Shown one piece after another: positions 21,172 through 47,929 of a stretch of 64,000 nt of DNA (position 1 is its first letter; the number at the start of each line of letters is the position of its first letter). The notes below the pieces were generated by a model. That model saw only the letters and a list, made by a program, of their open reading frames with translations. It did no database searches and was not told the origin of the DNA. Made by a program: the position numbers and the translations under genes. Source of the stretch: a virus. Where the stretch lies: IMG/VR virus record IMGVR_UViG_3300044655_001360. The stretch is one strand, 5' to 3'.

Positions 21172-21183
21172 GCTATATCCTTA

Positions 21184-24176: not shown

Positions 24177-24283
24177 GCGTTATTTTTAGATACTTGAAAC
24201 TGCCAACTGAGAATGCAGTATAACATAGTAAAAACTAAAAAGCCAGCACGGTGGCTGGCTTCTTGTTCGATTATCTTTTAGAA

Positions 24284-27552: not shown

Positions 27553-27553
27553 A

Positions 27554-27787
27554 CTATTTCTTCTTTTTCTCAGGTAGGCCTTTATGCTTAGTGCTAGCAA
27601 AGTCTTTAACATCTGATTTACTAATTGACTTAGCCATCTTTGCTATTTTAGGGCTGGATGCATCACCAGTTTCTTGGGCATGTTTAACCGCACCAAACAA
27701 CCGTTGTTGTGCTTTACTCAACGACTTTTCAGCTAGTATTTCTGATTCAATCAAATCCAGTTTATCAAGTATATCTCTCATGTTCAT
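27554..27787 (-). CDS. Small basic protein (DUF3008-like) with head-protein leader
   Basis: MNMRDILDKLDLIESE leader and 'SKAQQRLFG...DFASTKHKGLPEK'. Confidence 0.6.
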   Translation of the reverse strand: MNMRDILDKLDLIESEILAEKSLSKAQQRLFGAVKHAQETGDASSPKIAKMAKSISKSDVKDFASTKHKGLPEKKKK

Positions 27788-32569: not shown

Positions 32570-32869
32570 TCAATTATCTTTTAGATCACGAATGGCTCTA
32601 ACACTGTTTATGTTTTCCTTGTATAGAGATGTTTGTATTCCGTTTTGGTTGAAACTTTTACACCAAACATAACTGATATTGTGTTCTGTGAACGACCAAT
32701 ATCGTTTCTTATCAAAATCATTATCTGATTCATATATTCTGTTTAATTCATCTTTAGTGGGTAATCGCCATCCAGTCTTACCATCTATATTAAGAGAAAA
32801 ACAATACAACTTGGCATCAAACCAGTTTAGTCTAATTTCAGTTGATTTAGGTGCTATTTCAAAGTTCAT
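32570..32869 (-). CDS. DUF1566/Lcl-like (C-type lectin fold) small protein, paralogue 1
   Basis: MNFEIAPKS...W.DA..YC..L.I.G..GWRLPT..EL...YWS...VRAIRDLKDN. Confidence 0.75.
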   Translation of the reverse strand: MNFEIAPKSTEIRLNWFDAKLYCFSLNIDGKTGWRLPTKDELNRIYESDNDFDKKRYWSFTEHNISYVWCKSFNQNGIQTSLYKENINSVRAIRDLKDN

Positions 32870-33059
32870 GATGATCATTATCCTCAACCGACCATTCAAT
32901 ATAGTCAATCAAATTTTGAATATCGCTACGTAGGACAGTTGCACGATATTGCCATTGGTTATTCTCGGTTACGAGTTTATCTTCGAGTGATTCAACAGTC
33001 GCTAAAAGATTATCGAGTTTTAACATTAAGATTTGTTTATGTGATAGGGATTTTCTCAT
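32859..33059 (-). CDS. Hypothetical protein
   Basis: 66 aa with a GGAGG RBS, downstream of the promoter. Confidence 0.6.
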   Translation of the reverse strand: MRKSLSHKQILMLKLDNLLATVESLEDKLVTENNQWQYRATVLRSDIQNLIDYIEWSVEDNDHHEL

Positions 33060-33084
33060 GATTGCCTCCGGTTAAGTTTTGCCT

Positions 33085-33112
33085 ATTATAACTAAAAGAT
33101 AATCGATGTCAA
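33085..33112 (-). promoter_or_regulatory. Sigma70-like promoter with the 12-mer box in its spacer
   Basis: TTGACA-tcgATTATCTTTTAGt-TATAAT. Confidence 0.8.
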
Positions 33113-33165
33113 CCATTATTTGCGAGCCCTAATAAAAGAATACCCAGACTAGCTGGGTATTGAAT

Positions 33166-33963
33166 TTAAGTAGCAACTGCTTGTATATGCAGTATTTGAT
33201 CTGGTGTTAAGTCTTTGGGTATCTTGATTTTAACTTTAATCAAAAGATTACCACGACGTTTAGTTTGCATATTGGGTAACCCTTCACCATTACAACTTAA
33301 AACAGTTTCGGGTTGGATACCAGCTGGGATTGTCAGGTTTAGCGTTCTGTCATCTAAGGTATGAATTTCAAGTTTAGTACCTAAAAGAGCATCCCAAACT
33401 GATATGGTTTTTTCAACTACTAGCGCATCACCTTCACGTCTAAACATTCGATGAGGTCTAATGTTAATATTAACAATCAAATCACCAGGAGGAATACCAG
33501 CAATCGAATCATCACCCAGACCTTGATAACGAATCTGCTGACCATGTAACACACCAGCAGGAACTTCAAGTTTAATCGTTTTCTTCTGACCAGATGGGTA
33601 AGCCAAGTCAGCATCAAATGATTTACCAGTTAGCACTTCTTCAAGTGAAACTTCTACATGGATAGAAAGACTGGTATTACGTTGTACGTGATGAAACCCA
33701 TGAGGACCACCGCCATGGAAAAATTCAAATGGATTAAATCCACCATGGAATTGCGGTTCAGGATTATTTGGATCTTGTCCATTATCAACCCGTTGTTTTT
33801 TAACTGGGTCACTTAAGACTTCATAAGCCGTTGCAATGTCTTTAAATTGTTCTTCAGAACCACCTCGGTCTGGGTGATGTTTCATTGCCAGTGAGCGATA
33901 GGCTTTCTTAATTTCATCTGCCGATGCGCCACGTGTTAAACCTAAAATCTTGTAGTAATCCAT
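33166..33963 (-). CDS. dnaJ: DnaJ/CbpA-type co-chaperone (J domain plus C-terminal domain, no Zn finger)
   Basis: DYYKILG...IKKAYR.LA..HHPD, G/F-rich linker, and DnaJ_C motifs (GDL, ALLG, G.GLP). Confidence 0.9.
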   Translation of the reverse strand: MDYYKILGLTRGASADEIKKAYRSLAMKHHPDRGGSEEQFKDIATAYEVLSDPVKKQRVDNGQDPNNPEPQFHGGFNPFEFFHGGGPHGFHHVQRNTSLSIHVEVSLEEVLTGKSFDADLAYPSGQKKTIKLEVPAGVLHGQQIRYQGLGDDSIAGIPPGDLIVNINIRPHRMFRREGDALVVEKTISVWDALLGTKLEIHTLDDRTLNLTIPAGIQPETVLSCNGEGLPNMQTKRRGNLLIKVKIKIPKDLTPDQILHIQAVAT

Positions 33964-33972
33964 ATTCCCAAA

Positions 33973-34587
33973 TTAAGGTAAATGTTTAAGGGCCAATGCG
34001 TAATTCGCATTGCGTTCTTCTAAACCATTAGTACCACCATTGATTTTCTTAGTAATGGTTAGCATATCTTTCTTGTCTGCATGGGTGTTAAGGTCGTGTT
34101 TATCCCAGAACCAGCAAGCAGATTCTAAAGCACCTTCCATGCTACACAGGTATTCACACAAATGATCTACTTCTACACCTAAGTCTTTAGCCATACTAAG
34201 GTAATTTGCTTTACCAGTCAATTGGATTAAACCACGACCACAAAACTTAAAGCCTTCACCAGTAGCTTCTGGACCATTCCCCATTCTACCACCATATACT
34301 TTATTTGCAATCTTTTCTGGTTGCTTTGCATATTGTTTGGCTACTGCTAAGGTAGGAAAGTACTTGGGGAATACTTTAACTAAGGTTTCAGCACGATAGT
34401 TCAAGTTTTCACGTAAGACAGTAAACTGACCACTTTCATGTGAACACTGGGCAATAAATGCAGCAACTCGTAACTTGGTATTGATTTCATACTTTGGTAA
34501 AATCTTATCTAATGCCGCTTTCCATTCATCAATGTGTTTGTTATTTGGTAATATAGCCGCCAAGTCAGCTTTTGTTATTTCATACAT
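33973..34587 (-). CDS. Glycoside hydrolase family 19 (chitinase-like) endolysin
   Basis: FIAQCSHESG, ENLNY, GRGLIQLTGKANY, SACWFW, INGG.NGL.ER. Confidence 0.9.
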   Translation of the reverse strand: MYEITKADLAAILPNNKHIDEWKAALDKILPKYEINTKLRVAAFIAQCSHESGQFTVLRENLNYRAETLVKVFPKYFPTLAVAKQYAKQPEKIANKVYGGRMGNGPEATGEGFKFCGRGLIQLTGKANYLSMAKDLGVEVDHLCEYLCSMEGALESACWFWDKHDLNTHADKKDMLTITKKINGGTNGLEERNANYALALKHLP

Positions 34588-35325
34588 TTAGTCAATCCTT
34601 TTTAATAGCATTGTGTTTGAATCGTTAGTAAACACAAAGTTCTCACCTATTTTGTTGATGTTATAATCACCTAGTACTTTAGTTAACCAAAAGATTTCAC
34701 TCATAGTGGCTTCATCCATTACATAACCTTCAGTACCTTCTAAAATGGCATTCTCTTGTACCAATCGAAGTTTGATTCGATTACCATAAGGTTTTACAAT
34801 AGTGATAACATCGTCTTCTAAGGTAAAATCATCCATTAAAGTCTTTGTAAAGAACTTACGAATGCTTTCAGTTCTGATATCACCTAACATAGCAACGTAG
34901 TCAGCTGGGCTAGACGGAACTATAGCAGTTAAAGTTTCTTCATTGGCTTCGTGTTCAGCTTCATTGGTATGAAACTTGAACTTAAAGTTTTTAATACCAG
35001 TCAACTTAGTAACACCATATAAGATTTCAGTGATATGATTGGCTAAATGAGATTCTCTTGGTAATTCAACGAATACATAGTAATCACCTGCATTCGATTC
35101 ACCAGCACTTACATCAGCATCCAACACATAATGGTATCCTTTTTCAATGAAATCCATTAAGTCCTTGGCAGGTGATCTATCTTTAAGTTGGAAACTCAAA
35201 ACACAAACGTCTTGATCTTCACCCATCTTAGACCGATACGTGTCAATCTCAAAGAATGGGTAAATCATATGTTCTAAATCTAAAGGTCTTAAACCTTCGG
35301 TCAAGTTAGAGTGGTGGAAGTTCAT
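34588..35325 (-). CDS. Conserved-type hypothetical late protein
   Basis: Start taken at MNFHHSNLTEGL; 'ID.Y.SKMG.D.DV.VLSF'. Confidence 0.55.
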   Translation of the reverse strand: MNFHHSNLTEGLRPLDLEHMIYPFFEIDTYRSKMGEDQDVCVLSFQLKDRSPAKDLMDFIEKGYHYVLDADVSAGESNAGDYYVFVELPRESHLANHITEILYGVTKLTGIKNFKFKFHTNEAEHEANEETLTAIVPSSPADYVAMLGDIRTESIRKFFTKTLMDDFTLEDDVITIVKPYGNRIKLRLVQENAILEGTEGYVMDEATMSEIFWLTKVLGDYNINKIGENFVFTNDSNTMLLKRID

Positions 35326-35839
35326 TCTCAGCCTCCATTGCTTGTGTTTCAGCTGGGTCAACATGCGCATTCACGCCCTGATTCATCGTAGCAATATCAT
35401 CTAACTTGTTTTTATCCAAATTAGTATAGCCACGTGTGATATCAGTCATGAGTTTCTTTGGCATGCCAATTTTAACTAGCCAAACTTCTTCGCGGTCAAT
35501 CTTACCTTTACGCGTGCCTGGTCTGATGTCATCAACTTTCTTAATCTTTCGAACTCTTGAAAAATGGGAACTAGCAAACTCAACTTTACACCCATACTCC
35601 ATTAGTCTTAATCCACCAATGGGTTCTGGCATTTGCTTTTTAGGCCACATAAAAGTACATTCAACAAAGTAACGACTTTCATTTGGTCCAACAACTAATT
35701 CACCATCAATCCAGTTATCATAGACATACGTGTCTAATTCATCTATAACCCGTTCGAAATCTTTTAGCAAAGCGAGACTGTTATTAGAACCATAAATCTG
35801 TTCAATATTCTGTATTACGTCTTTAATATCGGTTGCCAT
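35306..35839 (-). CDS. Conserved-type hypothetical late protein
   Basis: 177 aa with a GGAG RBS and CTAAATA at 35857..35863. Confidence 0.6.
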   Translation of the reverse strand: MATDIKDVIQNIEQIYGSNNSLALLKDFERVIDELDTYVYDNWIDGELVVGPNESRYFVECTFMWPKKQMPEPIGGLRLMEYGCKVEFASSHFSRVRKIKKVDDIRPGTRKGKIDREEVWLVKIGMPKKLMTDITRGYTNLDKNKLDDIATMNQGVNAHVDPAETQAMEAENELPPL

Positions 35840-35941
35840 AAATTCTCCTATTGACGTATTTAGGCGAATTTCATTTGGGTAGAAAAGAAAAAGGCTACCT
35901 GAGTAGCCTTTGTTTGTATGGATTATTGATCACACCTGATC

Positions 35942-36208
35942 TCATACGCGTTTAATCTCTAACTGGTTGACAATACCAGATAGGTTAAATAAAGCGATGA
36001 ACTTATCAAAATCAATTTGATTGCTGAATTTGATACTGGTTATATCATCATAGACGCTAGTTCGTAGTTTTGCATTGAAAGCCAACTTACAATACTCCTT
36101 ATATCCGTCTGTTCTTGACCAGCCTTGTGCTTTGGCTGCAGATCTGATTACATTAATGAATTGATCAGAAGTTACATCGTTATATTTGAATTTAATTGTA
36201 ATAGTCAT
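35942..36208 (-). CDS. Hypothetical early protein
   Basis: 88 aa with a GGAG RBS and promoter TTGACA-N16-TATACT at 36240..36267. Confidence 0.6.
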   Translation of the reverse strand: MTITIKFKYNDVTSDQFINVIRSAAKAQGWSRTDGYKEYCKLAFNAKLRTSVYDDITSIKFSNQIDFDKFIALFNLSGIVNQLEIKRV

Positions 36209-36274
36209 GTTGTTTACTCCAGTTAGTTAAGGTGTGAGTAGTATAATATATTATTTGGGAATGTCAAGTGTTTT

Positions 36275-36574
36275 TCAATTATCTTTTATATCTCTCACGG
36301 CGCGTACCCGAATATTATCACTTGATTTACCATGAGCGTATCGACTACCATCTCTAAATGATAAAGCATCAGCAAGTATATTAGTAATCTCAACAGATGT
36401 CCAGTAGTATGAACTTGCGAAATCATTTCCTGATTTGTATATTTCGTTTAATTCTTCATTGGTTGGTAGCCTCCATCCGGATTTACCGCCTATATCAAGG
36501 GAGAAACAATACAAACGGGCATCATCCCAGTTGGATCGGATCTCTGTTGATTTTGGTGCTATTTCAAATTTCAT
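36275..36574 (-). CDS. DUF1566/Lcl-like protein, paralogue 2
   Basis: Family motifs present; promoter TTGACT-N16-TATACT at 36608..36635. Confidence 0.75.
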   Translation of the reverse strand: MKFEIAPKSTEIRSNWDDARLYCFSLDIGGKSGWRLPTNEELNEIYKSGNDFASSYYWTSVEITNILADALSFRDGSRYAHGKSSDNIRVRAVRDIKDN

Positions 36575-36726
36575 GTTATTAACTCCGGTTCTGTTTAAGA
36601 TGCTGGTAGTATAACAACGAAACTAATAAAGTCAATACCTAAAACAAAGAAACCTCAAATAGAAATATTTGAGGTTTTCTAAGAGGTGTGATTTCTCAAA
36701 AGTATTATTTGATTATATTACTGATA

Positions 36727-36747
36727 GCTCGCGCTATTCGCGCTCGC
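36727..36747 (-). repeat. Hairpin element, copy 6 (21-nt variant)
   Basis: Minus strand GCGAG CGC GAATA GCG CGAGC. Confidence 0.8.
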
Positions 36748-36809
36748 ACAAATAGAAATGAAATAGATAATTGAACCCACCAGATTTTGGACGTAACTGT
36801 CCATTTAAA

Positions 36810-37260
36810 AGAATAATACTAAAAGATAATTGAACTATGATTGTCTTATAGATGATGTCGATTACTAAAAGATGATTGAACTATTATAGACTTATAGATG
36901 ATGTTTATATTTGATCTATTATCTTTTAGTTATGATATTCTTATTGATGATCTTATTGATGATCTTATTGATGTGAGTTATTAATGAATTATCTTTTAGT
37001 TCAAAATGTATATGTTCGAATAGATCTAAAATGTATGTGTGCAAATGGAAACAGCTAAAATGTATGGGTTCGTATAGAGTTAAAATGTATGTGCGCGAAT
37101 GGAAACAGCTATAAGGCAATTATCTTTTAGGTTCAAAATGTATGTGCGCGTGGCTTAAGCAGGTAGGATATAAGGGAAGATAAAGTTGAATCTATTATCT
37201 TTTAGATGCTCCTACAATAATAGATTAATTATAGATTAATTATAGATTCTAATAGAAGCT
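36810..37260. repeat. AT-rich iterated-repeat region, candidate replication origin
   Basis: Two ~40-bp direct repeats starting CTAAAAGAT, three short TCTTATTGATG repeats, AAAATGTAT x5 within longer duplicated units, ATAGATTAATT x2, and six 12-mer boxes. Confidence 0.6.
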
Positions 37261-37269
37261 CCTAATACT

Positions 37270-37900
37270 GCGGTATGTGGAGCTGAACATCTTAACCCGA
37301 AAAACTCGGGTTAATTCAAAGCATTCTGGAGGATACATTCTCAAGAAGTTCTGCGTACAAGTATCGCATCACAGCAGCAGTAGAGCATTACAGAGGCGGT
37401 CAGCCGGTACCTCGAGCTCAGTCTTATTAATCTGACGGTGGCTTGCTGGACAACTGCTACCTCATCCAACAAACGCGGGTTTTCTCAACCCATCTTTAGC
37501 CTTTGTTATATCTTTTTGCTGTAACTCAAATGGGTTGTATGAAGGCATATCCCATAACTCATCTGGTGGGGTAGTGAGTTACATCTCCGTTGCTAAATTC
37601 GGAACTTCCATCCCCTATGTGACAAGTAGACTAGGGTTTAAGGGCACGTAATGGTCGCCTGTGCGCGGCTTTCTTAGCAATTCTCTCGTCTTTCTATGTT
37701 CTATCTAGTAATTCGACGAGCAATGGTGGCGGGTGCCTAAAAGATAATTGAAGTAGTATTGAGATGGTCTCTGAAGTTGTAAAAGCGAATAGACTAGGTG
37801 TCGGTAGGGATTTGAGTTGGTCTCTAAAAGATCATTGAGTAATAGACTGGGTGTCGGTAAGCATTTGAGATGGTCTCGGTAAACTGCTTTTGAGTAGAAT
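37270..37900 (-). ncRNA. Candidate large structured non-coding RNA
   Basis: ORF-free, GC-elevated core with many helices whose G.U pairs favour the minus strand. Consensus promoter directly upstream. Ends are uncertain. Confidence 0.6.
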
Positions 37901-37907
37901 ATGATTA

Positions 37908-38019
37908 ATTATAACTTAGATTATGGGGACTGTCAACCTTTTTTCAAGGCTTCTCGTTAACTTCTTTTGGGTAATTTCATAATATGGTTAATTGTACCTT
38001 GTATAGAAATGGATGTCAA
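37908..38019 (-). promoter_or_regulatory. Two sigma70-like promoters pointing into the non-coding interval
   Basis: TTGACA-N17-TATAAT (37908..37936) and TTGACA-N17-TACAAT (37991..38019). Confidence 0.8.
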
Positions 38020-38025
38020 GTGTTT

Positions 38026-38316
38026 TTAATCATCTTTTAGATCTCGAACTGGCATAGTAACTGCTTCGCTTTCGTTTTTGTCCCATTCTATGAAGTGCAT
38101 TCCGTGTGGGCGCACTTGCATTGCATCCAATCCAAGGTCCTCGGAAGTCCAGTACCAATGATTGACAGCTGATGTGACTTGATTTGCGTGAAAATAATCT
38201 ATATCAGGTAAATGCCAACCGGTTTTACCATCGATATTAAGACAAAAACAATAAAACTTGGCTTCATACCAATTCAAATCGGATTTCCAATATTCTTCAG
38301 GTGCTATCTCAATCAT
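38026..38316 (-). CDS. DUF1566/Lcl-like protein, paralogue 3
   Basis: Family motifs; ends PVRDLKDD. Confidence 0.7.
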   Translation of the reverse strand: MIEIAPEEYWKSDLNWYEAKFYCFCLNIDGKTGWHLPDIDYFHANQVTSAVNHWYWTSEDLGLDAMQVRPHGMHFIEWDKNESEAVTMPVRDLKDD

Positions 38317-38576
38317 CTTTTAATTCTCGAGAAAAATCTAGGGTGAATAAGACAAAGTATTCTATTAAATATAGTTGGTTCAATATCTCTAACTGGTACT
38401 AGATGAAATTCGCAAGGACTATGTTGTAAATCATCATTTTGGTACCACATAACATGTTCAATGGCTTTGTATTCGTCAAGAGTTGGCAGTCTCCAACCAT
38501 CACCTAAACAAAAACAATACAAAACAGCATCTACATACGACATTCGGTTTTCTGGTGGTTTTCCTACTTCAATCAT
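38313..38576 (-). CDS. DUF1566/Lcl-like protein, paralogue 4 (short form)
   Basis: DA.LYCFCL..GWRLPT..E...PVRD. Confidence 0.65.
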   Translation of the reverse strand: MIEVGKPPENRMSYVDAVLYCFCLGDGWRLPTLDEYKAIEHVMWYQNDDLQHSPCEFHLVPVRDIEPTIFNRILCLIHPRFFSRIKR

Positions 38577-38832
38577 CGGTTATATCTCGCACTGGTATGG
38601 TATTCGAAACTTCATTTGTATTACTTTCACCCTCGCTATCCCAAAAAAGATAGCATGAACTTCTCAGTTGATTAAATTGCTCCCACAGAGTCACACCAAT
38701 TAAGGCATGTTCTGCGCTAGTCGGTAATCTCCAACCAGTCTTACCATTAATCGTAAGAGAGAAGCAATACATCTTAGCTTCATCGAATGTTAAATCTTTC
38801 CAGTATTTCTCGTTTGCAAACTCAAAGTTCAT
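38569..38832 (-). CDS. DUF1566/Lcl-like protein, paralogue 5
   Basis: Start MNFEFANE; YCFSLTINGKTGWRLPT...PVRD. Confidence 0.7.
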   Translation of the reverse strand: MNFEFANEKYWKDLTFDEAKMYCFSLTINGKTGWRLPTSAEHALIGVTLWEQFNQLRSSCYLFWDSEGESNTNEVSNTIPVRDITDD

Positions 38833-39047
38833 GTTATATCTCGCACTGGGGTTACTGGTAATGGTTCTGGACATTGCTCGTTTAAGTACCAACCTCGTAT
38901 GTTATAATGGTATTGAAATTCTTTGTCAGTCGGCATTCTCCATCCAATCTTACCATCGATGTTCAATGCAAAGCAATATAGCAATGCCTCGTCGTATGTT
39001 AACCAATTTTCCGATGTAGGTGCTATTTCAATTTTTGATTTCATCAT
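38829..39047 (-). CDS. DUF1566/Lcl-like protein, paralogue 6 (short form)
   Basis: IEIAP...YCFALNIDGKIGWRMPT...PVRD. Confidence 0.7.
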   Translation of the reverse strand: MMKSKIEIAPTSENWLTYDEALLYCFALNIDGKIGWRMPTDKEFQYHYNIRGWYLNEQCPEPLPVTPVRDIT

Positions 39048-39340
39048 CTTTTAGATCTCACGGCTCTAACCTTATTTTTACTTTCACGATGGGCATGAAA
39101 CTGGTGGTGAATTCCTCGATACGCGAAGCCTTTTTGAACCCAAATGCTTACATCACCCCATTCTTCGCTAGTCCAATAATAATCATTACCATTGAGAAAA
39201 TCAACCATTATATTCAACTCTTTCTTGGTTGGCAACCGCCATCCTGTTTTACCATCTATACGAAGAGCAAAACAATACAACCTGGCATCATTCCAGTTGG
39301 CTAGTATCTCGGTTTCTTTAGGTGCTATTTCGAATTTCAT
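39044..39340 (-). CDS. DUF1566/Lcl-like protein, paralogue 7
   Basis: Family motifs; ends VRAVRSKR. Confidence 0.75.
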   Translation of the reverse strand: MKFEIAPKETEILANWNDARLYCFALRIDGKTGWRLPTKKELNIMVDFLNGNDYYWTSEEWGDVSIWVQKGFAYRGIHHQFHAHRESKNKVRAVRSKR

Positions 39341-39627
39341 AGTAAATCCCTAACTAACCTAGTTCTAATCTTATCATCAAGTTTATTTGCCTTGTGAAAA
39401 CTGTTTGACAAGAAACTTTTAACCCAGGCGCGTGTGGTATCAATCTCGGTCGAAGACCAATACCAACCATCGAAATCGTTATCGGATTTCCAAATTTCAC
39501 TAAATTCGTTTTTAGAAGGTAATCTCCATCCGATCTTACCATCGATATTAAGAGAAAAGCAATACAATCGGGCATTATCCCAGTTGGTTCGGATCTCAGT
39601 AGATTTTGGTGCTATTTCAAAGTTCAT
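39337..39627 (-). CDS. DUF1566/Lcl-like protein, paralogue 8
   Basis: Start MNFEIAPKS; YWSS...AWV..F...RLVRD. Confidence 0.75.
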   Translation of the reverse strand: MNFEIAPKSTEIRTNWDNARLYCFSLNIDGKIGWRLPSKNEFSEIWKSDNDFDGWYWSSTEIDTTRAWVKSFLSNSFHKANKLDDKIRTRLVRDLL

Positions 39628-39890
39628 AAGATTTCCAAACATTCTACAATTACGTTTTCAGAATCATCGCCTCTAAAGCGATTGCAAGAACGGGCATAAG
39701 ACTCAGCATCTATACGATTGCCATATACCTTGTGGATTTCATTACCAAACTCATTGCAACAAACCCAAACAACATCTAGTTTTTCAGAACGACTCTCTAT
39801 TTCACCCCATTCGGAATCGCCTGCGTTACGATGCGCAGTTAACCCAGTGGAATCTTTGCGTATATAAACAGTATGTTGGTGGTATTTCAT
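39624..39890 (-). CDS. Hypothetical early protein
   Basis: Start taken at MKYHQ with an AGGA RBS, downstream of the promoter. Confidence 0.55.
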   Translation of the reverse strand: MKYHQHTVYIRKDSTGLTAHRNAGDSEWGEIESRSEKLDVVWVCCNEFGNEIHKVYGNRIDAESYARSCNRFRGDDSENVIVECLEIL

Positions 39891-39918
39891 GTTGGTTCCT
39901 ATTAGTTGAGTTTTGCGT

Positions 39919-39946
39919 ATTATAACTAAAAGATAACTGATGTCAA
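39919..39946 (-). promoter_or_regulatory. Sigma70-like promoter with the 12-mer box in its spacer, driving the six-gene DUF1566 array
   Basis: TTGACA-tcaGTTATCTTTTAGt-TATAAT. Confidence 0.8.
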
Positions 39947-39993
39947 GCATATATTACTGTATTGTATTGCATTGTATTCTCGCGAGTAATGTC

Positions 39994-40015
39994 GCGAGCA
40001 CCGATAGGTGCGAGC
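39994..40015 (+). repeat. Hairpin element, copy 7
   Basis: GCGAG CACC GATA GGTG CGAGC. Confidence 0.9.
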
Positions 40016-40118
40016 CATAACCATTATGACAACTCAAATACTACCAAAATGGCAAACTAAATACAAGCAGTGCAGTACTTAACGCAGTTCAAACTTCAAC
40101 CAAAAAGGACTTCAAAGC

Positions 40119-41678
40119 ATGACGAGAAAAAGATCAAGACACACGGATTCACGCGAGTATTTCAACGAAACGCATGAACCAAATACCCCACCCCAAAGCA
40201 AAAAAGCCCGTAGTAAAAACTCCAGTAGTAAACACCAGCAGTCCCATCAACAAAACCACCAGCAACAACCAGACCCACAGCAAATGTCAATCGATCAACG
40301 ATTGGCTGCTAAACGTAAACGGGTTCAAATTCACCCCAAAAACCTTAGCCAAGAACAATACTTAATGGAACTTAACAATCCTAAAAAACAAATTGTTTTT
40401 GCTATCGGGCCAGCTGGTACTGGTAAAGCTCAACCACTGTTTTCAAAAATAAAAATTCCAGGCGGTTGGACTACTATGGGTGATATCGCAGTAGGTGATA
40501 AAGTCACTACTCCTGATGGTAATACCGCTAATGTCGTCGGCTTATTCCCACAAGGTAGTAAACCGACTTATTCAATCACCTTGCACGATGGTCGTTCTAC
40601 TCTAGCCTGCGCTGAACACCTATGGGAAGTATTCCTTGATAATAAACCTGCAGTCATCAATACACTAGAACTACTTAAACTGCGTTATCATGGCTCTATT
40701 ATGCCTTATATTCGCCTACCTAAACACGAAATCATGGACGATGTAGAACTACCAATCGACCCTTTCCAATTAGGTACTATGCTCTTAAAAGACGATAAAG
40801 CTATCCCAGCGGAATATCTCAACGCTTCTCGTTCACAAAAAGTTAAATTACTACAAGGTCTGCTCGATACCAGTATTCATGCTGTCGATTCTGGTAACCT
40901 AGTCTTTACTGCCGGTGCCTTGTTACAAAACTCTGTTGTCTACCTTGTGCGTTCTATCGGTGGTTCTGCTTGTATCAAAGACACTGGTGTTCATATTCGG
41001 TTTAGTATCGTTGAGAGTCCTTTAGAGTTAATGCCGGTGTTGTCAGTTGTCGAATCCGAGGTGGAAGAGTGTCAGTGTATCTTGATCGATAGTGAGGAAC
41101 ACTTGTATGTTACTGATAATTATATAGTTTCCCACAACACGCTAATCGCAACTCAGTGGGCCGTTGATCAATTTAAAGCTGGTAAATGTGATAAGATTAT
41201 TGTAACTAGACCTGCAGTTTCAAACTCAGAATCTCTCGGTTACCTTCCTGGTAATTTGGAAGAAAAAATGCTACCGTGGACTGTTGGTATGTTTGACGTT
41301 TTTTACGAAAACTGGACTAAGGCAGAAGTCGAGTGGTTGATGTCCCGTGACTGTATATCCATTTCCCCGATGTCGTATATGCGCGGACGTACAATGAAAA
41401 ATGCTTGTGTTATTGCAGACGAGGTGCAGTTATGTAACCCAAGCCAAATGAAAATGCTTCTTACTCGAATAGGTGATCAGTCAAAAATGATTTTGACAGG
41501 TGATCTCGCACAAGCAGATAGAGGAGAATTTAACGGGTTAAAAGATTTTATGGGTTTATATGACAAGGCGTCTGTGAATAAGGAAGAATCCCGAATTGCT
41601 ATTGTTAGGTTTAGCCATTCAGATATCGAGCGGCACCCGGCAGTTGCCGAGGTGCTGAAATATTACGGTGAAGATTAG
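40119..41678 (+). CDS. phoH: PhoH-family ATPase containing an intein
   Basis: GPAGTGK|intein|T, TRPAV, LGYLPG..EEK..P, YMRGRT, DE.Q, LLTRIG, TGDLAQ.D, DI.RHP. Confidence 0.93.
   Translation: MTRKRSRHTDSREYFNETHEPNTPPQSKKARSKNSSSKHQQSHQQNHQQQPDPQQMSIDQRLAAKRKRVQIHPKNLSQEQYLMELNNPKKQIVFAIGPAGTGKAQPLFSKIKIPGGWTTMGDIAVGDKVTTPDGNTANVVGLFPQGSKPTYSITLHDGRSTLACAEHLWEVFLDNKPAVINTLELLKLRYHGSIMPYIRLPKHEIMDDVELPIDPFQLGTMLLKDDKAIPAEYLNASRSQKVKLLQGLLDTSIHAVDSGNLVFTAGALLQNSVVYLVRSIGGSACIKDTGVHIRFSIVESPLELMPVLSVVESEVEECQCILIDSEEHLYVTDNYIVSHNTLIATQWAVDQFKAGKCDKIIVTRPAVSNSESLGYLPGNLEEKMLPWTVGMFDVFYENWTKAEVEWLMSRDCISISPMSYMRGRTMKNACVIADEVQLCNPSQMKMLLTRIGDQSKMILTGDLAQADRGEFNGLKDFMGLYDKASVNKEESRIAIVRFSHSDIERHPAVAEVLKYYGED
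40428..41138 (+). mobile_element. Class-3-type intein (237 aa) in the PhoH P-loop, with degenerate LAGLIDADG remnants
   Basis: Starts AQPL; block B HLW, block F CQCI, block G YVT...SHN; +1 Thr. Confidence 0.88.
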
Positions 41679-41689
41679 TTAGTAATAAG

Positions 41690-41712
41690 AAAAGGGCCTT
41701 ACGGCCCTTTTT
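41690..41712 (+). terminator. Rho-independent terminator after phoH
   Basis: AAAAGGGCC-TTAC-GGCCCTTTTT. Confidence 0.8.
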
Positions 41713-41721
41713 GTTTATATG

Positions 41722-41743
41722 GCTCGCACCTATCGGTGCTCGC
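41722..41743 (-). repeat. Hairpin element, copy 8
   Basis: Minus strand GCGAG CACC GATA GGTG CGAGC. Confidence 0.9.
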
Positions 41744-41829
41744 ATGATAAAAAGTATAAATACAAATGAGATTCGCGACTGTAGGAAGTCCAATCCCTCT
41801 AACATTTAATCTTAAAGGAGAATGCCAGC

Positions 41830-43134
41830 ATGAGTATTTATGCACCAGTCAAAAACCCAATTTCATTGGGTACACAATCAAACACTGTACAACCACAACC
41901 AACAACTTTACCCGAAGATAATCAAATCCCAGGGTATGTATATCGACTTACCTGTATACCTACTGGACAGTTTTATATAGGATCTCGTGTTGGGAATATC
42001 ACCGAAAAGAAAATGCCGAAAGAAGACTTTTGGATTAATTATCATACCAGTAGTGAATATGTCACTGAGTTAAGAATACTGTATGGGAAAGCTAGTTTCG
42101 AGTATGAAATCATTTACGAGGATTGTGATAGAGATAAAGTATTTTGGTATGAACAGGAACAAATCCAAAAACATTATAATGACCCATTGATTTTGAATAA
42201 ACAGGTTAATGGATATAAAGATAAACATAAAGGTAAATCTATACCAATATCCACATCAGGAAAACATAGAAAATGGGAAGTTACAGCACCGTGTGGTGTT
42301 GTGTGGGTAGTGAGTAACCTTGAACGATATTGCAAAAATAACGACTTAGATCCAGAAACGATGCGTGGTTTAGCGAGAGGAAAAGGTAAGCAATACAAAG
42401 GCTTTAAGTGCAGACTACAACCCAAATTACCAGTTCCAGCTTGGTATGTTACTATTGACATGGGTGACATTATAAAACCAATCGAACCTATTATGATATT
42501 AGGTAAAGTTCCGGTCATCGATATCAATATCAATCTAGTAGTACCGGAATTGCATGTGATTAAGTTTAAGCATAAGGAAAAGACTGAATCGTTGAGATCA
42601 CAGTATAAGAAATTAACTGCTGCTAAACCAGCAAAGAAACCAAAACCAGTGATACCATACAGCCCATCTGTTGCTAAAGGCTTGGCTAAAAAGAAAGCCA
42701 ATGGAACTCTTAGCTCGGCAGCTATAAAAGGTCAGGCAACACAGAGAAAGAATGGAACACATCAAAATGGTAACAAGGCTACCGTGTTAGCAACTAGAAA
42801 AGTGTGGGAGATTACTGATCCAGCTGGTAATATTACTATTACCAATGATTTGACTGGTTTTTGTAAAGAAAACGGCTTATCAGTTGCTTGTATGCGAGAT
42901 GTTGCATTTAATAGGCAGTTACAACATCGTGGTGGGTGGAAATGTAAAGAATGCGTTGGTGCTAAACCAGCAATTCATTGGGAGATTACGGACCCATTTG
43001 GTAATATAATTACAACTGATAATATAAAACAATTCTGCGAGGATAATAGTTTGAGTGAACCAGGTATGCGAAAAGTTGCACTTGGTTCCGCAAAATCACA
43101 TCGAGGCGGCTGGAAGTGTAAACGATTAGACTAA
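41830..43134 (+). CDS. Free-standing GIY-YIG-type homing endonuclease with three NUMOD-like repeat modules
   Basis: GYVY...FYIGSR and Y.TSS; three 'W.[IV]T.P.G......NL..[FY]C..N.L....MR..A.....GWKC'-like repeats. TATAAATA at 41755. Confidence 0.7.
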   Translation: MSIYAPVKNPISLGTQSNTVQPQPTTLPEDNQIPGYVYRLTCIPTGQFYIGSRVGNITEKKMPKEDFWINYHTSSEYVTELRILYGKASFEYEIIYEDCDRDKVFWYEQEQIQKHYNDPLILNKQVNGYKDKHKGKSIPISTSGKHRKWEVTAPCGVVWVVSNLERYCKNNDLDPETMRGLARGKGKQYKGFKCRLQPKLPVPAWYVTIDMGDIIKPIEPIMILGKVPVIDININLVVPELHVIKFKHKEKTESLRSQYKKLTAAKPAKKPKPVIPYSPSVAKGLAKKKANGTLSSAAIKGQATQRKNGTHQNGNKATVLATRKVWEITDPAGNITITNDLTGFCKENGLSVACMRDVAFNRQLQHRGGWKCKECVGAKPAIHWEITDPFGNIITTDNIKQFCEDNSLSEPGMRKVALGSAKSHRGGWKCKRLD

Positions 43135-43177
43135 AAGATAATGGGGCTCACGCGAGTGGGCCCTTTCTTTATAACAA

Positions 43178-43199
43178 GCTCGCACCTAGCGGTGCTCGC
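43178..43199 (-). repeat. Hairpin element, copy 9
   Basis: Minus strand GCGAG CACC GCTA GGTG CGAGC. Confidence 0.9.
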
Positions 43200-43215
43200 A
43201 ACACACAATAATAAA

Positions 43216-43503
43216 CTAAGCAGAAACAAACCCATGTTCACGTAGCAACATAAGGTCTACGAACTCCCAGCTGATAACCCGATAGAACATAGTCATAGCT
43301 TCACTATGATCGTCGTAGTCTCTTTCCATACCAGTATCATCTTCACCCCAAACGCAAACACGCCATTGGCCATCCCCATTTGTTGGATCTGGACCAGTCT
43401 GTGTAAAGGAAACACAAACAAGTTGCAGGTTATCCCAACCTTTTACTTGGTATGAAGGGTACCAATCATCGTGGGTTGGTTTGTATACGTCAATTCTTTT
43501 CAT
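43216..43503 (-). CDS. Hypothetical protein
   Basis: 95 aa with an AAGGA RBS. Confidence 0.6.
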   Translation of the reverse strand: MKRIDVYKPTHDDWYPSYQVKGWDNLQLVCVSFTQTGPDPTNGDGQWRVCVWGEDDTGMERDYDDHSEAMTMFYRVISWEFVDLMLLREHGFVSA

Positions 43504-43529
43504 AGTGGATTCCTTGTTTTAATTATCTT

Positions 43530-43865
43530 TTATAGGTCACGAACAGGTAATACAAAATACCGATTGTATGGTATATTGTTTTTGCCTGGTATGCAATACG
43601 TTTGGAATCCTTTTCTGAAATCTTGAGTCCAAATGGCTTTGTCGAAATCTGGGTTATCACATACAATATACGGGGTACATGACCAGTAACAAACTGGGTC
43701 AAACCTTTGCACCTGTAATCGATTATCAAGGTATATTTGATTCAATTCATCCATAGTTGGTAGTCTCCAACCTGTTTTACCCTCAATGTTTGCCATACAG
43801 TAGAATCTGGCATCATCGTAGTTTGCTTCAATTACTGCTGACTTCGGTGCTGTTTCAAAGTTCAT
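43530..43865 (-). CDS. DUF1566/Lcl-like protein, paralogue 9
   Basis: Family motifs (GWRLPT..EL, YWS, PVRDL). Confidence 0.75.
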   Translation of the reverse strand: MNFETAPKSAVIEANYDDARFYCMANIEGKTGWRLPTMDELNQIYLDNRLQVQRFDPVCYWSCTPYIVCDNPDFDKAIWTQDFRKGFQTYCIPGKNNIPYNRYFVLPVRDL

Positions 43866-44215
43866 AGGATTTCTCTATATCCGTTCCATTTGTAGATCAA
43901 CCTACCAAACCAACCGACTTCTGGTAGGGTTCTAACTGGGACTACCAAACGTGGAGTATTAAGTTCGTAGTCATTGATAAGTGGCCATGGTAACGACCAA
44001 CAATCACGTAAGATAGTATAACCATCAGCACTCCAACAACCACGGTTAGAAGCCCATTCCTCGTAATCTATGGATTTCGTAATCTTATGCAATTCGTTGG
44101 TGGTTGGTTCACGCCAGCCTACCTTACCGTCAATGTTAAGGGAGAAACAATACATCTTTGCTGTATTTTGTGGCATTTTAACCTGATATTCGGGTGGTGC
44201 TATTTCGATGTACAT
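43862..44215 (-). CDS. DUF1566/Lcl-like protein, paralogue 10
   Basis: IEIAP...YCFSLNIDGKVGWREPT...PVR. Confidence 0.7.
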   Translation of the reverse strand: MYIEIAPPEYQVKMPQNTAKMYCFSLNIDGKVGWREPTTNELHKITKSIDYEEWASNRGCWSADGYTILRDCWSLPWPLINDYELNTPRLVVPVRTLPEVGWFGRLIYKWNGYREIL

Positions 44216-44538
44216 AGTCGGTTAATAATCCGTTTGAAGAGATTTGGAGTTTTGAAAATAGGTTGTTTAGTTCTAATTGGCAAAACCAAACATTTACTAC
44301 TAACCCGTGAACTGGTGCAACCACCTCTGCCTTTTTGTAAGTTAATGTAAACATATCTGAACTCAAGACGAGGAGGTTCACTAGTCCAATAAGGGCCTTC
44401 AAATCTAAATTCAGCAACTGAGAGTTCAAGGAATTCTTTTTCTGTTGGTAAACGATAACCTAGCGTGAAGCAATAGAATACTGCTTCATCGTAGGGTAGG
44501 CGAGTCCAATACTTTTCTGGTGCTATTTCGATGTTCAT
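44200..44538 (-). CDS. DUF1566/Lcl-like protein, paralogue 11
   Basis: Start MNIEIAPEK; YCF...YRLPT..E...YWTS...PIR. Confidence 0.7.
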   Translation of the reverse strand: MNIEIAPEKYWTRLPYDEAVFYCFTLGYRLPTEKEFLELSVAEFRFEGPYWTSEPPRLEFRYVYINLQKGRGGCTSSRVSSKCLVLPIRTKQPIFKTPNLFKRIINRLCTSK

Positions 44539-44554
44539 ACGGTTTTCCTTAATA

Positions 44555-44576
44555 GCTCGCACCTAGCGGTGCTCGC
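44555..44576 (-). repeat. Hairpin element, copy 10
   Basis: Minus strand GCGAG CACC GCTA GGTG CGAGC. Confidence 0.9.
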
Positions 44577-44582
44577 GTTGAT

Positions 44583-44894
44583 TCAATTATCTTTTAGATC
44601 TCTCACTGGTCTAACTCCTAGTATTTCATGTGATTTCCCACCAGTTGAATGATATCCCGTGTCGAAAAGTGAGTAACAATACACGCAGTTATTATCATAG
44701 TCTACCTCAGTAGATGACCAGTAATACCCACCCAGTACAAAATCACTGTCTATTTTTCTTATTGACATCAATTCATCAATGGTTGGTAATCGCCAATCAT
44801 TTTTCCCATCGATATTAAGAGAGAAACAATACAGTTTAGCATCACTCCACGTAAGTCTTGTTTCGGTTGATTTAGGTGCTATTTCAATATTCAT
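44583..44894 (-). CDS. DUF1566/Lcl-like protein, paralogue 12
   Basis: Family motifs; ends VRPVRDLKDN. Promoter TTGACT-N17-TAGACT at 44926..44954 overlaps a 12-mer box. Confidence 0.75.
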   Translation of the reverse strand: MNIEIAPKSTETRLTWSDAKLYCFSLNIDGKNDWRLPTIDELMSIRKIDSDFVLGGYYWSSTEVDYDNNCVYCYSLFDTGYHSTGGKSHEILGVRPVRDLKDN

Positions 44895-44950
44895 GTGATT
44901 CTCGATTGGTTGTTATGTTTCAAGTAGTCTAAAAGATAATGCGAACAAAG

Positions 44951-45247
44951 TCAACTATTATCTTTTAGATCTCTCACTGGTCTAGCGTAACGAATGTGTT
45001 CTTTAAAGCTATGAGATCCCAGTTCGGAATGCCAGTTGTAGCATACTATCCAGTCGCCATCGTCGTTGGAAGTCCAATACCATTCATCGGAACTTTCAAT
45101 GTTTTGTGATTTTAGAAACTCTTGTTCCTTATTGGTAGGTAAACGCCATCCAATTTTCCCATCAATGGTCAACGAAAAACAATATAATTTAGCATCTTCC
45201 CAGTTCAATTCTTTTTGGAATTCAATAGGTGCTATTTCGATGTTCAT
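44951..45247 (-). CDS. DUF1566/Lcl-like protein, paralogue 13
   Basis: Family motifs; ends RPVRDLKDNS. Confidence 0.75.
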   Translation of the reverse strand: MNIEIAPIEFQKELNWEDAKLYCFSLTIDGKIGWRLPTNKEQEFLKSQNIESSDEWYWTSNDDGDWIVCYNWHSELGSHSFKEHIRYARPVRDLKDNS

Positions 45248-45324
45248 TCAAAGTCCGTAAGAAAATCAGCAAGCATAAAAGCAAAAACAAATAAGAATGC
45301 GATAAAAGTAAGAGTGTAAAACAT
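45244..45324 (-). CDS. 26-aa hydrophobic membrane peptide
   Basis: MFYTLTFIAFLFVFAFMLADFLTDFE; AGGAGA RBS; stop overlaps the next ATG. Confidence 0.55.
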   Translation of the reverse strand: MFYTLTFIAFLFVFAFMLADFLTDFE

Positions 45325-45355
45325 GTTGATTCTCCTAGTAGTTGATACTGTATGT

Positions 45356-45383
45356 ATTATACCTAAAAGATAATGGATGTCAA
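45356..45383 (-). promoter_or_regulatory. Sigma70-like promoter with the 12-mer box in its spacer
   Basis: TTGACA-tccATTATCTTTTAGg-TATAAT. Confidence 0.8.
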
Positions 45384-45480
45384 CATTTTTCGATGGGTAA
45401 AGAAAAGGGCCTATTGGATAGACCCTTTTGATACTTTGCGAGCTCAATATGACTAAAAGATAATCGTGTATTACCTCCTA

Positions 45481-45502
45481 GCGAGCGCCGCTAGGCGCGA
45501 GC
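45481..45502 (+). repeat. Hairpin element, copy 11
   Basis: GCGAG CGCC GCTA GGCG CGAGC. Confidence 0.9.
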
Positions 45503-47837: not shown

Positions 47838-47929
47838 CTAAAAGATAATTGAAAACGACTAAAAGATAATTGCTTTTAGTATTGAAAACGGCTAAAAGAT
47901 AACTGAACCATAAGGCAATTATCTTTTAG
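47838..47929. repeat. Cluster of four 12-mer boxes (three direct, one inverted)
   Basis: CTAAAAGATAA[T/C] at 47838, 47859 and 47892; ATTATCTTTTAG at 47918. Confidence 0.85.

Follow-up and report, generated by a model that had tools for sequence, protein, structure and literature searches.

A clade-wide 12-nucleotide box at gene junctions and early promoters of an uncultured giant T4-like myovirus

The window analysed here, a 64,000-nucleotide stretch of viral DNA (IMG/VR record IMGVR_UViG_3300044655_001360), belongs to an uncultured giant T4-like myovirus, with PHROG matches to a T4-type DNA polymerase, baseplate and tail-fibre proteins, and with PA5oct as the source of the nearest cultured DNA polymerase (49%). 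The 13 ORFs under study in its 32.5-45.4 kb region all encoded small Lcl_C/DUF1566-like proteins (Pfam PF07603; own HMM), and were interspersed with copies of a 12-mer, CTAAAAGATAAT (hereafter the box), and of a small stem-loop with tandem G.A pairs (the GA-hairpin). The main features are listed below; related phages are designated by L numbers.

24270..24281, minus: box with the third-frame stop (SKR, stop) of an unrelated 482-aa ORF, then a terminator and the 24176 promoter
32573..32584, minus: forward box at the 3' end of DUF1566 gene 32570..32908 (DLKDN, then TGA), then hairpin and 32526 promoter
33085..33112, minus: perfect TTGACA-N16-TATAAT promoter with reversed box 33092-33103 in the spacer, heading a 66-aa ORF and DUF1566 operon
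36240..36289, minus: junction module of box variant ATAAAAGATAAT (end of gene 36275..36574), TGAAAAACAC, then TTGACA-N16-TATACT
36819..37205, both strands: six-box cluster (two plus, four minus) 3' of a Polynucleobacter-1-type RNA gene
37737..37835, plus: pair of boxes immediately 5' of the RNA core, in reverse orientation with respect to the RNA gene
37991..38040, minus: junction module of box variant CTAAAAGATGAT (end of gene 38026..38316), then TTGACA-N17-TACAAT
38026..39642, minus: array of six DUF1566/Lcl_C mini-genes, of which only 38026 (in frame) and 39044 (frame-shifted) are box-ended
39919..39946, minus: perfect TTGACA-N16-TATAAT promoter with reversed box variant 39926-39937 in the spacer, heading a 108-aa ORF and the DUF1566 array
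39994..40015, plus: GA-hairpin 56 nt after plus-strand box 39926, upstream of phoH
41722..41743, minus: GA-hairpin, left endpoint of a 3.2-kb stretch absent from L057
43131..43164, plus: box providing the TAA stop of an unrelated 434-aa endonuclease-like gene and lying right next to a bidirectional terminator
43178..43199, minus: GA-hairpin after a 95-aa gene; between that gene and the hairpin, L017 has three extra DUF1566 genes and L001 one
43522..43533, minus: box variant downstream of the stop that ends gene 43530..43865 prematurely; the L174 orthologue is in frame (IKDN, stop)
44555..44597, minus: box 44586-44597, 9 nt, then GA-hairpin 44555-44576, after gene 44583..44894
44613..44956, minus: DUF1566 gene behind a weak promoter containing a reversed box, together a one-gene unit of 344 bp, with a box-including 28-bp direct repeat on either side
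44926..44968, minus: forward box 44957 (end of gene 44951..45247), AG, TTGACT, 8 nt, then reversed box 44929, whose TAG opens the -10 TAGACT
45356..45383, minus: perfect TTGACA-N16-TATAAT promoter with reversed box 45363-45374 in the spacer, heading a small hydrophobic ORF and DUF1566 operon
45453..45502, plus: box, 16 nt, GA-hairpin module, antisense to the local genes
47838..47929, both strands: four-box cluster (three plus, one minus) upstream of a MazG-like gene, where a segment replaced in L060 has its right-hand limit

Seven of the 13 DUF1566 mini-genes ended on the box, five in frame and two out of frame, in agreement with an earlier note on this DNA, which had also claimed rightly that the motif is kept as DNA whatever the reading frame. 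The in-frame copies gave the tails DLKDN (32570, 44583), DIKDN (36275), DLKDD (38026) and DLKDNS (44951), each followed by a stop. Gene 39044 read the box as AGA TCT AAA AGA TGA (RSKR, stop), and gene 43530 closed with CTA TAA before AAGATAAT; among the orthologues of the latter, the box was in frame in L174 and out of frame in the window and in L001, through different 2-nt indels. Across the clade, 34 of 60 DUF1566 genes did not end on a box, and 24 unrelated ORFs did, with all three frames represented. As the box holds stops in two frames and a frequent TGA closes the third, an upstream ORF of any kind ends there; the LKDN, SKR-stop and D-stop tails, and the seeming survival of the motif across frameshifts, arise because ORFs run into a stop-bearing box.

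The repetition of the 12-mer, also reported earlier, was pronounced, with 40 matches in the window at up to one mismatch against 0.73 expected (none of 100 shuffles reached 40), and these spanned positions 2967 to 62970, beyond the 32.5-45.4 kb region. The clade-wide set comprised 142 unique exact contexts, in which conservation set in abruptly at the 5' edge and ran on into nGA at the 3' side. Of 106 exact boxes in 240 kb, 64 were intergenic, 21 lay in sense on ORF 3' ends and 18 within ORFs, so that about 80% stood between genes or at gene ends, though about 90% of the DNA is coding. Between co-directional genes, orientation was balanced (35 sense, 32 antisense), which argues for a role as double-strand DNA. 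Beside the RNA gene, the closest box of the 36819..37205 cluster and copy 37737 were invariant in five phages about 80% identical, while their flanks diverged. A more distant relative carried another junction box, GGCCCCGCTGTA, into which a DUF1566 gene also read. The box is thus a clade-wide gene-junction and early-promoter element into which neighbouring genes run, and probably a double-strand DNA site of a putative protein. Its neighbours included unrelated genes, a non-coding RNA and a MazG-like operon, and this genome-wide placement does not support the earlier proposal that box, hairpin, lectin genes and perhaps RNA form one dedicated system.

The link to promoters was close, as 39 of 80 strong sigma-70 sites carried a box at a few fixed positions, with offsets relative to TTGACW peaking at +2, -3 and -8. 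Forward boxes preceded the -35 hexamer by 0-2 or by about 10 nt, and reversed boxes lay within the spacer or formed the start of the -10 hexamer; in a third setting, the box directly preceded a stem-loop (the covarying GA-hairpin or an intrinsic terminator). Unrelated small genes of L027 had promoters of the types box-nn-TTGACA and reversed-box/TAGAAT, and the architecture of 44926..44968 recurred in that phage. Phage early-promoter operators, such as the lambda Cro/CI sites at OR and OL or the phi29 p4 sites, are likewise short specific sequences that overlap or adjoin the -35/-10 elements of numerous early promoters, in some cases paired in inverted orientation about -35. The box differs from them in being non-palindromic and nearly invariant, in its well over a hundred copies, and in the many copies outside promoters. 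Two of these properties count against the explanation preferred below: about half of the boxes had no recognisable sigma-70 promoter around them, some being inside genes, and an operator would rarely hold 24 near-invariant bits across several promoter registers.

Whole gene units differed between related phages, and two clean indels relative to close relatives ended exactly on boxes. The 344-bp unit 44613..44956 was missing in L001, L017, L018 and L057, and L001 carried a 1.2-kb two-gene insertion exactly at 43522..43533, between two boxes, with an 11-bp box repeat flanking the insert. Replaced segments also had boxes at their boundaries. The earlier expectation of breakpoints on the 12-mer was therefore borne out in these cases, but other repeats served equally: an 808-bp insert in L012 was flanked by a duplicated terminator, the 3.2-kb difference with L057 was bounded by hairpin copies, and other indel ends lay in paralogous coding DNA. 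Moreover, most DUF1566 gain and loss proceeded without a box, contrary to the idea that turnover requires it.

Taken together, we hold with moderate confidence that CTAAAAGATAAT is a clade-specific junction and early-promoter cis element, and that gene turnover proceeds by recombination at any short repeat, in a PeSL-like manner. The element, often with its nGA extension, would mark gene junctions in early, hyperplastic regions, where a sequence-specific protein, most likely an early-promoter regulator encoded by the phage, would bind it in double-stranded form; any ORF upstream, whatever its kind, would run into the box stops and end. Genes would be gained and lost through homology-driven recombination, presumably not enzyme-directed, between short repeats (box, hairpin, terminator or paralogous gene halves). 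Two observations weigh against this account: the 11-bp end identity at the 1.2-kb indel is short for homologous recombination, and about 20% of indel boundaries fell within 3 nt of a box, by a rough estimate far above random positions but only modestly more than any intergenic landmark would yield.

By analogy, the mode of turnover appears to match that of the promoter-early stem-loop cassettes (PeSLs) of the T4-type phages RB49/phi1, T4/PST and KVP40/nt-1 (Arbiol et al. 2010, PMC2839356; Comeau et al. 2014, PMC4122927). Both occur in T4-like myoviruses as composite motifs recurring between small early genes of variable regions, with near-perfect TTGACA-N17-TATAAT promoters beside a stem-loop, and in both, close relatives differ by insertion, deletion or replacement of flanked genes with crossovers within the repeats. 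In contrast to PeSLs, conservation here is highest in a non-palindromic 12-mer, found in either orientation, at several promoter registers and also away from promoters (RNA-gene flanks, clusters, inside genes), and the place of the stem-loop is taken by a separate, covarying hairpin that has tandem G.A pairs and an orientation coupled to that of the box. The first part of a PeSL is AT-rich, precedes the -35 hexamer and has been proposed as a site of crossovers (PMC2839356, PMC4122927), and the forward box, spanning -38 to -49, coincides in part with the UP element position. The box could thus be read by no factor and owe its uniformity to gene conversion, as nothing more than the AT-rich border, similar to an UP element, of promoter modules that recombine. 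We consider this unlikely, as boxes reversed in spacers, clustered at the RNA gene or before the MazG-like gene, or isolated in genes are not promoter edges, and boxes stay invariant where flanks diverge.

The GA-hairpin, present in nine copies in the window, showed covariation at three positions of its stem, kept its tandem G.A pairs constant and had a folding energy of about -13 kcal/mol. The copies at 32537 and 44555, correctly placed by the earlier note just 3' of bracketed units in the sense orientation (14 and 9 nt 3' of the box, respectively), represent two of these nine. Clade-wide, 32 of 55 hairpins had a forward box upstream on the same strand, 14 of these at 9-18 nt, and a reversed box occurred only once; boxes at ORF 3' ends were sense in all but one of 22 cases. 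Lambda nut sites combine boxA with the boxB hairpin, and resemble this arrangement in that a conserved linear box precedes a small conserved hairpin by about 10 nt, the two being fixed in relative orientation. Box and hairpin might accordingly act in RNA, as a nut-like intercistronic module or an RNase processing or stabilising site governing read-through or decay of early transcripts. This is quite unlikely given the balanced box orientation across co-directional genes, the many boxes in untranscribed promoter spacers and the several box-hairpin modules antisense to local genes. Unlike nut sites, to which they lack sequence similarity, the elements here occur in dozens of copies and in both orientations relative to genes.

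Four units were bracketed by inverted boxes, as described earlier: 32573(-)/33092(+), 38029(-)/39926(+), 44586(-)/44929(+) and 44957(-)/45363(+). The right-hand copy lay within a promoter, perfect in three cases and weaker at 44954 (TTGACT-N17-TAGACT). These units look bracketed because they are ordinary transcription units, with a reversed-box promoter at the head and the next module's forward box at the tail. The bracketing, the unusual invariance of the box, its presence at replaced-segment boundaries and the two clean indels, one with just 11 bp of identity, would also suit a core site of dedicated site-specific recombination (integron-, shufflon- or invertase-like), in which an enzyme encoded outside the window excises, inserts or inverts DUF1566 units. 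We regard this as very unlikely. No tyrosine or serine recombinase or Y1 transposase was found in four relative records (~190 kb), although the relatives were all fragments, which leaves room for an enzyme encoded elsewhere; in the window, none was noticed among the part of the ORFs scanned. Furthermore, no segment, bracketed units included, was inverted in any close relative, most boxes were situated within genes, beside the RNA gene or in the promoters of genes that do not vary, and DUF1566 turnover also occurred without boxes, with breakpoints at other repeats. Neither inverted units nor an enzyme gene accompanying the elements, whether recombinase or reverse transcriptase, turned up in the records searched.

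The suggested resemblance to diversity-generating retroelements (DGRs) held for the relatives' DUF1566 genes, which belong to the same family as DGR variable proteins (C-type-lectin/DUF1566 class; Guo et al. 2011, PMC3240598) and possessed a hypervariable C-half with DGR-type variable regions, i.e. a conserved scaffold with NNC codons (third-position C of 0.41-0.53 in the C-half vs 0.07-0.20 in the N-half). It did not extend to the box, on which none of the ten signature-bearing genes ended (Fisher p = 0.016), which shows that the box does not act as an IMH-like signal. The hairpin, GC-rich and with a 4-nt loop, lay 4-14 nt past the stop in four of these ten genes, and published DGR target hairpins have a GC-rich stem of 7-10 bp, whose structure matters and whose sequence does not, and a 4-nt loop, 4-34 bp after the variable region (PMC3240598). 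That box and hairpin are DGR target signals (IMH-like sequence plus target hairpin) for rewriting lectin-gene C-halves is nevertheless highly doubtful. The window's 13 copies had no strong variable-region signature (maximum 0.35), their C-halves had no template-like copy in the window, no DGR template repeat was found where looked for, and reverse transcriptases were absent from 14 relative records, including two complete 372-kb genomes. In addition, the hairpin was dispersed genome-wide, with 42 of 55 copies elsewhere than behind a DUF1566 gene, and of its GNTA loops only the GATA variant (10 of 55) fits the GRNA consensus.

Finally, a need of the proteins for the LKDN tail, suggested by the five in-frame genes of the window, has practically no probability as the reason for the motif and is refuted by the frame data, the box being out of frame in two paralogues and several orthologues and read in other frames where unrelated genes end on it, the tail lying outside the Pfam domain and the majority of box copies being non-coding.

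The features described in the earlier note were real and strongly non-random. The repeated 12-mer CTAAAAGATAAT (the box, called forward or reversed according to its orientation relative to the gene or promoter) had 40 matches with at most one mismatch in the window against 0.73 expected, a number that no shuffled sequence came near, and its copies spanned positions 2967 to 62970, so that it was not confined to the DUF1566 region. Its companion, a structured element with tandem G.A pairs (the GA-hairpin, GCGAGCNCCGCTAGGNGCGAGC), was present in nine window copies where none was expected, and the two hairpins that had been reported just 3' of DUF1566 units were among them. A family HMM recovered all 13 small ORFs of the 32.5-45.3 kb region as DUF1566, and four of the ten genes tested against Lcl_C/DUF1566 (PF07603) scored above the gathering threshold, with five more matching below it. 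The note had joined box, hairpin and variable lectin genes, perhaps with the adjacent RNA, into one diversification or shuffling system. This joint system is better described as three merged layers: a junction and early-promoter box, a hairpin coupled to it, and a lectin family with a probable past in a diversity-generating retroelement (DGR).

The PHROG matches in the window included a T4-type B-family DNA polymerase (split), baseplate-wedge and tail-fibre proteins, an exonuclease and a homing-endonuclease-like gene, while ClpA-like, DnaJ, PhoH, RFC-type clamp-loader, dCMP-deaminase, MazG-like and GroES-like genes were recognized by eye from the translations. With its rows of small ORFs, the phage is a T4-like myovirus with hyperplastic early-gene regions, the kind of host in which promoter-early stem-loop (PeSL) cassettes occur. 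Its nearest cultured DNA polymerase was that of the Pseudomonas phage PA5oct (287 kb; 49%), and the 14 kb of the window searched had no nucleotide match in cultured phages. As judged by CheckV from two related contigs (53 kb = 15%, 72 kb = 20%), the genome would measure roughly 350 kb. The hairpin was found in 17 IMG/VR contigs, nearly all of which also had the box. More distant relatives (dCMP deaminase ≤66%, DnaJ ≤58%), including two complete 372-kb genomes, had neither, and the pair was absent from the bacterial genomes scanned; box and hairpin thus characterize a single narrow clade of phages. A host origin of the hairpin was rejected, as the bacterial scan returned only scattered single matches in GC-rich genomes without boxes. 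One metagenome scan for further close relatives yielded a single 3.5-kb contig.

Features of the window and of related phage contigs (L and G numbers) referred to in the text.
19182-23370, minus strand: split DNA polymerase ORFs of 728 and 339 aa, with a 334-aa ORF (phrog_22677) between them
26165-27612, minus strand: two adjacent genes with the common N-terminal peptide MEIRYLLDKLKL, which contains a reversed box variant in codons 4-7
37205-37740, minus strand: Polynucleobacter-1 (RF01718) RNA gene, Rfam match 37519-37669, core about 500 nt
40119-41678, plus strand: PhoH-like gene of 519 aa with an intein-looking insert of ~250 aa after the P-loop
L012:4059-6933, minus strand; L057:13395-13704; also L016 and G003 (L147): signature DUF1566 genes with NNC codons
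L025 (complete 372-kb, box-less relative), e.g. 311, 1218, 1360, 1618 and 8875, all sense: motif (A)GGCCCCGCTGTA

The 334-aa ORF lying between the DNA polymerase halves may be an intervening mobile element.

Among 106 exact boxes on four contigs (240 kb, coding fraction about 90%), 64 were intergenic and 18 lay inside ORFs, while ORF 3' ends held 21 in the sense orientation and one in antisense. Between co-directional genes the orientation was balanced (35 sense, 32 antisense), which points to recognition of the box as double-stranded DNA. The consensus was sharply delimited at its 5' edge and extended 3' by nGA, with variants mostly at positions 10 and 12. Between 24 and 46 kb there were eight promoters that matched TTGACA/TATAAT with no more than one mismatch, and 39 of the 80 strong sigma-70 sites of the clade carried a box. 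Box-to-TTGACW distances peaked sharply where the end of a forward box lay 2 nt before the -35 hexamer; in two further registers a reversed box started 3 nt or 8 nt after it, the 8-nt register being the one in which the TAG of the box forms the start of a TAGAAT or TAGACT -10 hexamer. The GATAAT of the box does not act as a general -10 hexamer, as it had a correctly spaced TTGACA only once (L027 5171). A function as late promoter was also rejected, since structural-gene regions had almost no boxes.

The related contig L027 had no DUF1566 gene past its first 311 bases, and within 10 kb it held 12 exact boxes plus 22 with one mismatch, almost all of them within promoters of unrelated small early genes. 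Its early promoters at L027:6186-9800 had in common a conserved ~90-bp module, composed of the box, TTGACA and a tgggtac...gtaccca stem that encloses the -10 hexamer, with a common leader CCTTAACAAAGCACTACGGAGTAAAGA ahead of the ATG. In the window, a cluster of four boxes at 47838-47929 preceded the MazG-like gene. The box is thus not specific to DUF1566 units, as it was also present in promoters and ends of unrelated genes, in the flanks of the RNA gene and before the MazG-like gene. It most likely serves as a site for a sequence-specific double-strand DNA-binding protein acting on early promoters.

The four DUF1566 units said to be bracketed by inverted boxes were confirmed. Three of them had a perfect TTGACA/TATAAT promoter whose 16-nt spacer held the right-hand box, always in the same register; in the fourth, that box was within a weaker TTGACT-N17-TAGACT. 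This arrangement corresponds to transcription units, the reversed box belonging to the promoter at the head and the forward box to the junction module that follows. The same box layout was seen at the RNA gene: inverted boxes bracketed it, and a perfect promoter at 37936 drives its core, which ~87-nt repeats precede. Across five aligned phages of about 80% identity, the RNA core was nearly invariant and both boxes beside it were invariant, whereas the flanks had diverged. At 32526, 45383 and 24176, box and promoter were separated by a GA-hairpin or a terminator, and the stem-loop was missing at some boxes.

Seven of the 13 paralogues ended on the box, as previously noted: five in frame (DLKDN, DIKDN, DLKDD, DLKDN, DLKDNS) and two out of frame, namely gene 39044, where the box is read as ...R S K R stop following a 2-nt loss, and gene 43530, where the stop falls two bases into a 2-nt-shifted box copy. 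The motif was indeed kept as DNA whatever the frame, but its apparent survival of frameshifts is simply explained by a junction/promoter box with built-in stop codons. The sequence CTAAAAGATAAT-TGA reads in its three frames as CTA AAA GAT AAT TGA, C TAA and CT AAA AGA TAA. The box itself always closes two frames, and a directly following TGA or TAA (46 of 142 contexts) closes the third, so that any ORF abutting the junction module ends inside it. Unrelated ORFs, 24 in number and 47 to 1081 aa long, also had their ends on the box, with all three frames represented, and the stop codons of the 482-aa and 434-aa genes of the window sit in boxes. Of the clade's 60 distinct DUF1566 genes, only 26 ended on it, and none of the seven in the L012 operon orthologous to 32570-33103. 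Moreover, the Pfam domain stops short of the KDN tail, and among the orthologues of gene 43530, L174 reads the box in frame (IKDN) while the window and L001 versions have it out of frame via two different 2-nt indels. A protein constraint on the LKDN tail is ruled out by these frame data. In a relative outside the clade with another junction motif, GGCCCCGCTGTA, a DUF1566 gene also read into it (...PVRDRGPAVT stop).

The hairpin was represented by 55 distinct copies in the clade, with the fold ((..(((((....)))))..)) at about -13 kcal/mol. Pairs 6-17, 7-16 and 8-15 each covaried among three or four Watson-Crick types, with one G-U as the sole departure, while the tandem G.A pairs and the outer G-C and C-G pairs were constant and the loop was GNTA. 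On the same strand, 32 of the 55 hairpins had a forward box no more than 200 nt upstream (14 of them at 9-18 nt), and only one had a reversed box there; the box-hairpin module as a whole could take either orientation relative to genes. When the junctions at 32526, 36267 and 38019 were compared, the hairpin stood out as 36 inserted nucleotides that separate the box from the -35 hexamer, and at 33092 the window had a single GCGAGC where L012 had a complete hairpin. Hairpins following a DUF1566 gene were enriched (13/55), without being exclusive to that position (42 elsewhere).

Indels were compared between the window and relatives 92-96% identical to it. Breakpoints on the 12-mer, expected if the units are cassettes, were found for two clean indels: a 344-bp one-gene unit at 44613-44956, missing from four relatives and with a 28-bp direct repeat including the box at both sides, and a 1.2-kb two-gene insertion of L001 at 43522, between two boxes with only 11 bp in common. 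Other breakpoints fell on hairpins, terminators or coding DNA. L012 had an 808-bp two-ORF insertion between two terminator copies, and L057 lacked 41744-44956, with two hairpin copies and a box as endpoints. Genes for the PhoH-like protein and a 434-aa endonuclease-like protein, on the opposite strand, split the DUF1566 arrays, and L057 lacked the endonuclease gene and its four neighbouring DUF1566 genes. At 32.6 kb, seven DUF1566 genes stood against one, and one or three extra genes followed the 95-aa gene; the endpoints at these two places were a hairpin edge, the inside of a gene, or overlapping start and stop codons, with no box. Two replaced segments each had a box at one boundary, and several further indels ended without notable repeat. 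Overall, crossovers inside repeated motifs accounted for the events at 44613-44956, 43522, 35885-35916, 41743-44957 and 47918, and other events ended within genes. Roughly 9 of 44 boundaries were within 3 nt of a box, far above a random expectation of roughly 1.5% but only about twice an intergenic-only null (all rough estimates), so no strong claim is made on breakpoints.

The best-supported explanation for this gene turnover is homologous exchange of the PeSL type, with any of the repeats serving as its site. In PeSLs, recombination within repeated promoter/stem-loop modules excises or inserts the intervening genes, and the resulting mini-circles have been demonstrated by inverse PCR (PMC2839356, PMC4122927). 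The window resembles them in its T4-like host, a recurrent sigma-70-like early-promoter motif, an adjacent stem-loop, and indels and replacements with crossovers in repeats.

Concerning the lectin genes, ten DUF1566 genes of relatives (L012/L041, L016, G003 (L147) and L057) had a common DNA scaffold (TGG TCC TCT ACT GAG ... GCC TGG AGT CAG ... AAG ... TAC GTT AGA GC) interrupted by NNC codons, the trace left when an AAC-rich template undergoes adenine mutagenesis. Their third-position C was 0.41-0.53 in the C-half and 0.07-0.20 in the N-half. As relatives' genes carry this scaffold, the hypervariable C-halves of the lectin genes probably originated as variable regions written by a DGR. The box takes no part in this: none of the ten signature genes ended on it, compared to 25 of 49 others (p = 0.016). 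Four of the ten were followed 4-14 nt downstream by the hairpin with its GNTA loop; DGR target hairpins are GC-rich, have a GRNA loop of 4 nt and lie 4-34 bp beyond the variable region (PMC3240598), and the present hairpin may possibly be such an element. A template repeat belonging to the clade was sought by two pattern scans, which gave nothing or only templates of unrelated box-less phages, and the clade sequences searched contained no AAC-rich template. Three unrelated phages (L171-L173; IMG/VR 3300020190_000757 and two others), of about 49% GC and without box or hairpin, had true DGR-template-like sequences.

An alternative is that the 12-mer and the orientation-coupled GA-hairpin are cis sites of dedicated machinery of this phage clade, in which a sequence-specific protein would mark the junction modules and promote their exchange or insulate their transcription, or the hairpin would be a landing signal for a DGR elsewhere in the genome. 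This reading appears improbable; if true in either form, lectin mini-gene regulation and cassette turnover would be mechanistically linked. A DGR acting within the window was rejected, as the C-halves of its 13 DUF1566 genes had no second or template-like copy there and no adenine-specific pattern. In these genes the NNC signature was weak or absent (third-position C at most 0.35). No reverse transcriptase was noticed among the part of the window ORFs scanned, and no RVT_1 match was obtained in 14 relative records (two complete, most fragments). An integron, shufflon or invertase differs in that no dedicated recombinase was found (none noticed among the window ORFs scanned, part of the total; four relative records, which are incomplete genomes, likewise gave no hit to Phage_integrase, Resolvase or Y1_Tnp), and in that the rearrangements were not confined to core sites and involved no inversion of units, with zero inverted segments in the relatives compared.

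Cassette shuffling, a promoter box and the DGR-written lectin genes of relatives are thereby separated, and the PeSL shuffling idea is extended to an uncultured giant-phage clade distantly related to PA5oct. The 12-mer box and the covarying GA-hairpin, as two sharply specified cis elements, offer probes for an early-transcription regulator.

In the gene pair at 26165-27612, the first gene encoded an ART-PolyVal ADP-ribosyltransferase domain (PF18760, E 1e-22). In L025, the motif (A)GGCCCCGCTGTA had nine copies in 20 kb, located between genes just ahead of ribosome-binding sites, and could be a phage-specific promoter or processing site.
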